In this document: piece after piece, positions 43,301 to 46,300 of the stretch | Layout of the letters: every line of letters begins with the position of its first letter | Numbering within the stretch: position 1 is the stretch's first letter | NCBI GenBank assembly: GCA_963822945.1 | Contig: CAWGJO010000024.1 | Coordinates: 123,995-187,994, forward strand | Source of the DNA: an uncultured Gemmatimonadaceae bacterium | GTDB lineage: Bacteria; Gemmatimonadota; Gemmatimonadetes; Gemmatimonadales; Gemmatimonadaceae | Reading direction: 5' to 3' | DNA: 64,000 nucleotides | Program-made: the position numbers

Positions 43301-46300
43301 CGGCCGGCCGACGTAGTCGCTCAGCATCGTATCCAACTCGGAGCGGAAGGCCGCGTCGGCCATCGCCTCGTCGAATGCCCGGTCCAGTTCATCCAACGCC
43401 GGAATGAGCGTTTCCGGGACGTACCGTCCGCCGAACGCGCCGAACCGGCCGGCCACCTGCTCTGCTGTCATCGTGTGCCCTCGACAGAACGTACGGCATC
43501 CCGGAACGCGCGCATGCGCGCCGGGTCCTTGATCCCCACCTGGCTCTCGATCCCGGACGAGACATCAACGATGTCGGGGCGCAGGGCGGTCACCGCCCGC
43601 GCCACGTTCTCGGGCCGCAGGCCGCCCGCCAACACCAACCCGGCGCGGCCCCCCGAGCGCACCGCCGCTACGGGACCGGACAGCGCCTCCCACGAAAGCG
43701 CGACCCCGGTCCCGCCCAGTGCCCCCTCGACCTTCGCGTCCAGTACCACGGCGTCGGCCGTCGCGAACAATTCCCCGGACCGTACGGGAAGTTCCGTACC
43801 GGCCACGCGAAGCACCACCCAGATGGCCCGCTCCCAGTCCCGCCGGAGCGACGCGACATCCTCGGCGGTGGCGTCGCCGTGCAGTTGGATCGCCCCGAGG
43901 CCCAGCGCCCGGGCTCGCGCGGCGATCACCCCCGACGGTTCGCGGCCGAAGACGCCCACTCGATCCACACCCGGCGGCAGCGCGGAGAAGATCGTGGCCG
44001 CACGCGATTCGTCCTGCCGCCGCGGCCCACCGGCGAACACCACCCCCACGTAGCGGGCACCGGCCGCCGCGGCCTCACGCGCATCCTCGGCCCGCGTCAT
44101 GCCGCAGAACTTGATCTCAACCACGCACGGCCCCCGACCGGGGTACCCCGGCGAGCTGCCGCACCGCCGCCGTCGGGTCGGATGCCGCCGAGATCGCCGA
44201 GCCCACGAGCACCGCGTCCGCGCCACTGGCCGCGGCATGGGCGACGTCCACCGGCGTGGCGATGCCGCTCTCCCAGACGGCCACCACGTCGGCCGGGATC
44301 CGGGGCATGAGCGCCTCCGCCACGGCGACATCCACTTCGAGCGTCTCCAGGTTCCGGCAATTGACGCCCACGACACGAGCGCCGGCGTCGAGTGCCCGGC
44401 CCAGCTCGTCGGGGGTCCGCACCTCGACCAGCGACTCCAACCCGACCGATGCGGCCACCGATACGAGGCGCGGCAGCACCGCCGGTTCGAGCGCCCTGGC
44501 GATGAGCAGCACCGCCGACGCGCCCAGCAGGCGGGCCTCGAAGATCTGCACTGCGTCTAGGTGGAAGTCTTTCTTCAGCAATGGAATACCGACGCGACTT
44601 CTCACACTTTCGAGATCGGCTGCCGAGCCGTCGAAGTGCAGCGGCTCGGTGAGCACCGAGATGGCGGCGGCGCCGCCGGCCTCGTACGCGGCCGCTTGGG
44701 CCGCCGCGTCCAGGCCGGGATTGATGCTGCCCTTGGACGGCGAGCGGCGCTTCACTTCCGCGATCACCCGCACCGTCGGGCCGCGAAGTGCGGGCGCGAA
44801 GGCCGCGATGCCGGGCGCCGCCCCGAGCGCCGCTTCCAGCTCGCCGCGCCGGCCACGGAGCGCGATCACACGTTCCATTGTCTGGCCGACAATCGTCCCG
44901 AGTGTGCCGCCGGGCGGAGTCCAGGAAGAATTTCCTTGCACTTCGGTTCCTGTTCGGTTAAGCTGATTTCGGTAGTTCTTCGGGACCGGCGCCTGTGGGC
45001 GCCGCGCTCATCCGCACAACGAGGTTCACCGCATGCCGCTCACGAAACGCCAGCGCGAGATACTAACCTATCTGACCGCGCATACCGAACACCACGGGTA
45101 CGCGCCGAGTTTCGAGGAAATCGCCGAACATTTCCATTTCAGTTCGCTGGCGACGGTGCACGAGCATCTGAGCAACCTCGAGCGGAAGGGCTACATCCGG
45201 CGGACGTACAACGAGAGCCGGGCCATCGAGATTCTCCCTTCCGACGCCGTTGGCCGGGCCATCGAGCTGCCCCTGCTCGGCGCGGTTGCGGCCGGCTCGC
45301 CCATCGAAGCCATCGAGCACAATGAGACGATCACGGTCCCCGAGACTCTGATCCGCCGGTCGGGCGACCACTACGTGCTGCGGGTGCGTGGGAACTCGAT
45401 GATCGACGAGCAGATCCGCGACGGCGACTTCGTCGTGGTGAACGAACGCCCGCGTGCCGACAACGGCGAGACGGTCATCGCGCTGATCGACGGCACGGCC
45501 GCCACGGTCAAGAAGTTCTACCGTGAGCGGGACGGGCGCGTGCGCCTGCAGCCGGCCAATGAGACGATGGCGCCGATCTACGTCAACGAGAACGACATCC
45601 GCATCCAGGGTGTCGTCGTTGGCGTGATGCGCCGGTACTAGGCCGGCCGGCCGAACGCCAGGCGCAGGCGTTCGAGCGCGGCGACGCCGGCACGCGAGCG
45701 CACGGCCTCTCGCGCCCGGTCCACGCCTTCCGCATACGACGCCGCGGCGCCCGCCACGTAGAGCGCGGCCGCCGCATTCAGCACCACGGCGGCGGTGGCC
45801 CCCGGCGATCCCTTCCCTTCGAGCACGCTGAGCACGGCGTGCGCGTTGGCGGATGGTGACCCGCCGGCCAGTTCGGCCGGGGTGGCGCCGCCCATGCCCA
45901 GCTTCGCGGGGTCGATGGACCACTCCGTGATCGTCCCATCTCGCACTTCGCGCACGTGCGTGGGACCCAGCGGGGAGATCTCGTCCATCCCGGCGCCATG
46001 CACGACGAGGGCGTGGTGCGTGCCGAGCTCGGCGAGCGCCGCGGCCAGAAGCGGCGCCCGGTCGGCGTCGCCCACCCCGATCACCTGCCGCCCCGCCCGG
46101 GCCGGGTTGGCCAGGGGCCCGACGATATTCATCACTGTGGGAATGCCCAACTCACGTCGCACCGGCCCCACGTGCCGCATGGCCGGATGCATGAGGGGGG
46201 CGAACATGAAGACGATGCCCGCCTCGCGGAGCGCGCGCTCCATGACCGGCACCGGCACGTCGATCTTCACCCCCAGCGCCTCCAGCACGTCGGCGCTGCC

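Follow-up and report, generated by a model that had tools for sequence, protein, structure and literature searches.

Bacillota and Actinomycetota are described as having a palindromic LexA box, GAAC-N4-GTTC, and Alphaproteobacteria a direct repeat, GTTC-N7-GTTC. The Balneolaeota LexA motif is an EMSA-validated direct repeat, TTACACATATTTTWTACATA, and its reported regulon includes lexA, recA, error-prone polymerases, and a radical SAM protein (PMC7739468). According to the same source, the LexA motifs of Patescibacteria (Sanchez-Osuna, Barbe, and Erill, 2017, Environ Microbiol 19:3465) and of Acidobacterium capsulatum (Mazon et al., 2006, Microbiology 152:1109) are direct repeats as well, and several independent origins of such motifs are suggested; we also drew on PMC8565304 and PMC3323433. 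Our search of the literature outside subscription papers and supplements found no LexA box for Gemmatimonadota. Here we describe such a box in a 64,000-nucleotide window from the genome of an uncultured Gemmatimonadaceae bacterium. Gemmatimonadota is a new phylum for direct-repeat LexA boxes, themselves a kind already known.

LexA and its promoter

The window encodes a LexA protein of 202 amino acids (45033-45641, + strand) with a DNA-binding domain and an S24 peptidase domain (TIGR00498, E = 1e-62). Ala87-Gly88 aligns with the cleavage site of Escherichia coli LexA, and Ser122 and Lys160 with its catalytic dyad; the winged helix-turn-helix, S24 peptidase, Ala-Gly site, and Ser-Lys dyad of a canonical LexA are thus all found in this genome. 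In the alignment to E. coli LexA, the recognition helix SLATVHEHL (codons 38 to 46; 45144-45170, + strand) reads S38-L-A40-T-V-H-E44-H-L against S39-P-N41-A-A-E-E45-H-L, placing Ala40 opposite Asn41 and Glu44 opposite Glu45. We found lexA once in the source genome, which is 88% complete; many genomes of the family have a second LexA-like match, about 39% identical.

Upstream of lexA, on the + strand, are two copies of the direct repeat TTCGG-N6-TTCGG: operator 1 (TTCGGTTCCTGTTCGG, 44942-44957), whose position is conserved in relatives, lies 91 bp from the gene, and operator 2 (TTCGGTAGTTCTTCGG, 44968-44983), also conserved, lies 65 bp from it. They are the only matches to this strict pattern in the window, where 0.12 would be expected by chance, and 1 of 100 shuffles reached two. 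This bears out the initial annotation, which had noted a direct repeat standing twice before lexA.

Conservation also points to a promoter around these sites. The TTG columns conserved before box 1 mark a putative −35 hexamer, TTGCAC (44936-44941, + strand), which appears as TTGACT in distant classes of the phylum; a TA-N3-T pattern, whose T, A, and final T each occur in 61 of 64 box-1 sites, marks a putative −10 hexamer, TAAGCT (44959-44964, + strand). A σ70 consensus scan of the lexA promoter called neither hexamer, and we infer both, together with the transcription start, from conservation. Operator 1 occupies 16 of the 17 bases of the spacer between the putative hexamers, and operator 2 lies over the predicted start, which would be near 44971.

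The geometry of TTG-N3, 17 bp, and TA-N3-T around box 1 recurs at 72 of 90 lexA loci (this locus counted). So fixed a position could also mean that the repeat belongs to the promoter, as a σ-factor or spacer element, a reading that we consider extremely unlikely. Box 2 of the lexA promoters lies at a variable distance downstream, without flanking hexamers; the sites before the DinB-family gene and uvrB (see below) are reversed, in their orthologues too; and it is with LexA, rather than with a σ factor, that the spacer bases vary.

A second alternative comes from the neighboring genes. lexA lies antisense between trpD (45638-46681, − strand), with which it converges, and trpC (44117-44878, − strand, starting at 44878, or at 44941 if GTG is the start codon), from which it diverges. 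Since this arrangement (44117-46681 in the window), in which trpC is followed by trpF and trpB, is found in 28 of 29 family genomes, the boxes might serve trpC in tryptophan control. We assign this reading a vanishingly small likelihood: the boxes remain at lexA loci that show no trpC (15 of 18 in the same class and 14 of 14 in other classes, with 350 bp upstream covered), and boxes also precede the unlinked recA, radical SAM, and imuA genes, which contradicts it. The same trpD/lexA/trpC layout occurs in at least 8 of 28 other genomes of the order, whose loci were shorter. Read-through from trpD would yield an antisense RNA across lexA, an arrangement that we liken to the concept of noncontiguous operons. 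Elsewhere in the window, the trp run is split between trpB and trpA by two genes (39049-42350; labeled by eye), one HD-GYP-like and the other with HEAT repeats.

Conservation of the box in Gemmatimonadota

To return to a LexA operator as the preferred reading, we looked upstream of lexA in 89 other genomes of the phylum that have a lexA match: the 29 best, all from the window's family, and 60 picked across genera and classes. The strict pattern lies within 200 bp upstream in 86 of these (29 of 29 in the family, 28 of 28 in the order, 18 of 18 in the class, and 11 of 14 in other classes), against 2 of 89 in the downstream control; because kin are not independent, these counts describe conservation rather than statistical significance. 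Two or more strict sites are present in 77 of the 89 promoters. The spacing of TTCG pairs peaks sharply at 11 bp (164 pairs, compared with at most 8 at 10 or 12 bp); the box is a direct repeat with an 11-bp period, and its matrix columns show no inverted-repeat symmetry. Neither of the palindromes GAAC-N4-GTTC and CTGT-N8-ACAG occurs before the 26 Gemmatimonadota lexA loci checked for them. The consensus is TTCGG-N4-Y-N-TTCGG in class Gemmatimonadetes and TTCGC-N6-TTCGC in other classes.

Taking together sequence, conservation, the target set, and co-variation with the protein (the last two described below), we conclude that TTCGG-N4-Y-N-TTCGG is almost certainly the LexA operator of class Gemmatimonadetes.

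The predicted SOS regulon

The bare pattern TTCG-N7-TTCG shows no genome-wide excess (155 matches, compared with 140 to 195 at other non-triplet periods), so we used a full matrix instead; the operator signal emerges only when the full matrix is combined with position. The matrix was built from 130 distinct lexA-promoter sites, all from other Gemmatimonadetes genomes, and was run on the 3.97-Mb source genome with a crude gene caller. The ranks of the lexA boxes depend on this training set, while those of the remaining sites are independent of it. The radical SAM gene ranked 1st, followed by lexA box 1 (2nd), imuA (3rd), the DinB-family gene (4th), a glyoxalase-family gene (5th), a three-Cys-motif gene beside tcmP (8th), lexA box 2 (9th), uvrB (10th), a sigma factor gene (11th), gyrB (12th), and recA (17th); two intragenic matches fall between the glyoxalase-family and three-Cys-motif genes. 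At period 11, 14 of 21 matches above 17 bits are intergenic, compared with 3 to 4 intergenic matches among 6 to 34 at periods of 9, 10, 12, 13, and 14. Only 27 of 3,346 called genes score above 14 upstream. Three strong intragenic matches (20 to 23 bits) have no evident link to repair.

All six further sites of the initial annotation (recA, imuA, radical SAM, DinB-family, uvrB, and gyrB) are present where it had placed them. We followed these genes through a panel of 30 genomes, counting a site when the matrix score upstream exceeded 14; no downstream or mid-gene control exceeded this score for the radical SAM gene, imuA, gyrB, or uvrB. The recA site is present in 21 of 28 panel genomes, including 18 of 18 in the order, with none downstream; this count leaves out one genome without a recA match (G032) and one with a truncated gene (G024). 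The seven genomes lacking the site include all four testable members of other classes. The radical SAM gene has a site in 15 of 15 panel orthologues and imuA in 9 of 12; in each of the three imuA orthologues without one, a boxed radical SAM gene lies directly upstream. The radical SAM gene had been called splB-like, a name that was not confirmed; it is nearest the Rv2578c/PA0069 families, although below their cutoffs. Elsewhere in Gemmatimonadota, the gene behind a box encodes a radical SAM protein with helix-hairpin-helix motifs, which is likely to belong to the regulon as well.

The gyrB and uvrB sites, though present in the source genome, are largely a feature of the window's family. For gyrB, a site occurs in 7 of 28 panel genomes, which amounts to 7 of the 8 family genomes counted and 0 of 20 outside the family; in most family genomes a strong box lies about 45 to 55 bp upstream of the gene (C20:118755 in the source genome). 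One further genome (G131) has an 18.6-bit gyrB site before a fragmented gene and stands outside the count. For uvrB, 6 of 29 panel genomes have a site, five of them among the nine family members and one among the 20 others. We therefore rejected gyrB and uvrB as phylum-wide members of the regulon, gyrB sites being confined to the family and uvrB sites nearly so; gyrase has apparently been drawn into the SOS regulon at the family level.

The DinB-family gene, whose site was also correctly noted, encodes a 159-amino-acid PF05163 protein that is present in 2 of the 30 panel genomes, both with a site. It is not DNA polymerase IV (Pol IV): a Pol IV homologue lies elsewhere (C39:71135-72352) and has no site, its best score within 300 bp being 4.5 bits. 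In the source genome, we saw no site upstream of uvrA (two copies), ruvA, recN, or Pol IV; ssb has no site of its own and sits four genes behind uvrB, in the same orientation.

Other high-scoring genes are less consistent across genomes. The glyoxalase-family gene was rejected as a target, as only one of five orthologues, from the same genus, has a site; it has no evident link to repair. Nor does the sigma factor gene, likewise rejected: it encodes a group-2-like σ70 factor with a box 240 bp upstream (C20:313415) that is found in 3 of 3 same-genus genomes and is patchy beyond them, in all 9 of 30 genomes, with mixed orientation and consistency only within the genus. Separately, a 22.6-bit box ends 4 bp before the three-Cys-motif gene, which is followed by tcmP (C13:42896); we take the three-Cys-motif gene to be DUF5131.

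The repeat outside Gemmatimonadota

The initial annotation described the motif as that of its lineage. We rejected a phylum-specific motif, because the repeat is found before lexA in Patescibacteria, Acidobacteriota, Krumholzibacteriota, and further groups as well. An exact promoter-plus-box scan of GTDB genomes gave at least 120 loci. Among the first 80 matches listed, which have full flanks, 26 lead to lexA, 10 to Pol IV-type, 4 to DinB-family, and 2 to radical SAM genes; many of the others resemble chance matches. The taxa among the matches listed include Acidobacteriota, Patescibacteria, Krumholzibacteriota, Ozemobacteraceae, and Gemmatimonadota.

Since such a scan selects for the motif, we added unselected samples, taking the best lexA loci from 46 Patescibacteria and 35 Acidobacteriota genomes; 28 of 29 loci were analyzed in each sample (one locus was incomplete, and one was unpublished). 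In Patescibacteria, the repeat is present at 9 of 17 loci with a helix of the form [AS]-T-[VI]-x-[EKQRA]-H and at 0 of 11 with other helices; in Acidobacteriota, the corresponding counts are 7 of 14 and 0 of 14. Two types of LexA occur in Krumholzibacteriota: the first has the direct-repeat helix and a box, and the second has SPRGVQDH-like helices and no repeat (0 of 16 loci with other helices); 14 of 35 Krumholzibacteriota genomes have more than one LexA match. The repeat is absent from the lexA loci checked in Gammaproteobacteria, Bacillota, Chloroflexota, Actinomycetota, and Alphaproteobacteria, most of which carry their own known boxes. Because the repeat tracks helix type across phyla, the motif belongs to a type of LexA and not to Gemmatimonadota.

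In the sampled Patescibacteria genomes, TTCG-N7-TTCG, mostly as TTCGG, stands before lexA genes with the same SLATVHEH-type helix. The Gemmatimonadota box is thus probably the one already published for Patescibacteria, although they are a different phylum and the likeness comes from the sampled genomes rather than from the published consensus. Acidobacteriota lexA promoters have the same period-11 repeat at the same position in the spacer, but Terriglobia have TTCGC-N6-TTCGC with Lys45, in contrast to TTCGG with Glu45 in Gemmatimonadetes. The 2006 study of A. capsulatum reportedly gave the consensus as GTTC-N7-GTTC.

The alphaproteobacterial box is likewise a direct repeat of period 11 with the TTC core. 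It differs in that its register is off by one base: GG is conserved after TTC in Gemmatimonadota, where the alphaproteobacterial G before TTC is found in only 19 of 83 first and 32 of 83 second halves. The alphaproteobacterial helix, SKSG[IV]HRL, also differs. By our own reading, the Balneolaeota box has ACATA units 11 bp apart; it resembles ours in being a direct repeat and in a regulon that includes a radical SAM protein, but its half-site is different. The Bacillota and Actinomycetota LexAs share with ours the half-site CGAA, and their helix is similar (SSSTVHGHL in Bacillus), but their box is a palindrome and residue 45 is Gly or Ala.

In a quick tree from all alignment columns, all 59 repeat-bearing LexAs fall in one branch of 68 rows (SH-aLRT, 98). 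Without the helix columns, support falls to 84, and long-branched palindrome-type rows enter the direct-repeat branch; a single origin of the direct-repeat LexAs is therefore only plausible. Both IQ-TREE trees place two alphaproteobacterial LexAs among those with direct repeats, on a long, weakly supported branch.

Co-variation of the recognition helix and the half-site

In E. coli LexA, the residues that contact DNA are Ser39, Asn41, Ala42, Glu44, and Glu45 (PMC3091678), of which Asn41 and Glu45 touch bases, and with the E45K substitution the protein no longer binds the recA box specifically (bioRxiv 10.1101/2020.07.14.201889). We compared helix residues (E. coli numbering) with half-site bases at 203 of 204 lexA loci. 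In the E. coli protein, Glu45 reads the first base pair of the half-site and Asn41 the second. With Glu45, the fifth half-site base is G in 318 of 326 cases; with Lys45, C stands there in 106 of 116, and G in none. By genome, 88 pair Glu or Gln with G and 41 pair Lys with C, so that all 129 are concordant, a count that covers loci with a site and one of these residues and sets aside 74 other rows. The Glu/Lys switch requires 5 to 6 changes on the best trees; an independent-pairs test was not significant, as well-supported branches offered one pair, too few to reach significance.

A held-out set comprised 37 distinct metagenome and 29 Krumholzibacteriota proteins from 77 loci, after duplicates and truncated proteins were dropped. 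In the Krumholzibacteriota half-sites, Glu45 goes with G in 15 of 16 and Lys45 with C in 13 of 20. Asn41 goes with TTCAC at 12 of 12 held-out sites, all from one group of relatives, and Ala41 or Ser41 with TTCG at 25 of 25. Against this code, G accompanies Lys45 in 4 of 64 half-sites, and A accompanies Gly41 at 3 of 4 sites. At residue 44, Gln accompanies TACGC repeats at three loci, and Tyr and Phe are mixed. TACGC-N6-TACGC occurs in the lexA promoters of one Bacteriovorax-labeled and three Acidobacteriota loci; the motif published for Bdellovibrio bacteriovorus is the palindrome TTAC-N3-GTAA.

The co-variation supports the reading of the box as a LexA operator and is the best link of the box to LexA itself, although independent, well-supported contrasts are few. 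It bears directly on a third alternative, in which another damage-response regulator binds the repeat and lexA is merely a target. WYL-domain activators of the PafBC/DriD kind respond to DNA damage, any damage regulator would have such a target set, and a direct repeat would be an unusual target for a symmetric dimer. We nonetheless judge this alternative very unlikely, because, across phyla, the letters of the repeat change with residues 41, 44, and 45 of the LexA helix; because the repeat stands before none of the 25 other-helix lexA genes of Patescibacteria and Acidobacteriota and none of the 16 of Krumholzibacteriota; and because boxes within the spacer and over the start occupy a repressor's position.

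A model for LexA at direct repeats

With LexA as the regulator, we infer promoter function, binding, repression, induction, contacts, and geometry as follows. LexA bound at box 1, in the −35/−10 spacer, and at box 2, over the start, would block RNA polymerase at its own promoter, and at single boxes it would repress recA, the radical SAM gene, and imuA-imuB-dnaE2. DNA damage would lead to RecA-stimulated self-cleavage of LexA and release of the target genes. We propose this occlusion and release because they are established LexA biology.

Each DNA-binding domain most likely reads 5′-CCGAA on the lower strand, Glu44 (E. coli Glu45) specifying the first base and the small residue 40 (E. coli Asn41) accompanying C at the second. 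CCGAA is the Gram-positive CGAA plus one specified base, which fits Glu here versus Gly in Bacillus at position 45. The half-sites are arranged head to tail at a distance of 11 bp, within the 16-bp span of the E. coli palindrome, as though one half had been inverted in place. The simplest model would have one dimer with its left DNA-binding domain reversed in place; alternatively, two dimers might each place one domain on the box. A pyrimidine stands two bases before the right half in 83 of 83 second boxes, a preference that the first half does not show, and the right half of the box resembles a canonical right half.

More broadly, we propose an old branch of LexA that recognizes 16-bp direct repeats by means of one DNA-binding domain flipped in place. 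This branch would span Gemmatimonadota, Patescibacteria, Acidobacteriota, Krumholzibacteriota, Riflebacteria, and other groups, and it may have given rise to the alphaproteobacterial protein. Its half-site code would pair residue 45 Glu/Lys with TTCGG/TTCGC, residue 41 Ala or Ser/Asn with TTCG/TTCA, and residue 44 His/Gln with TTC/TAC; SOS boxes of uncultured phyla would be predictable from the helix, and direct-repeat binding would have arisen once, in contrast to the several origins suggested in PMC7739468. We offer this proposal tentatively, rating its chances as somewhat below even.

Implications

These findings provide a predicted SOS box and a core regulon (lexA, recA, the radical SAM gene, and imuA-imuB-dnaE2) for an abundant, little-studied phylum, together with an apparent family-level recruitment of gyrB and uvrB alongside that core. 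With the natural Glu/Lys and Ala/Asn switches, the way in which a LexA dimer recognizes a direct repeat could be tested directly. What merits testing is the possibility of a single origin, together with the helix-to-base code, which may offer a route to predicting SOS boxes in uncultured phyla.
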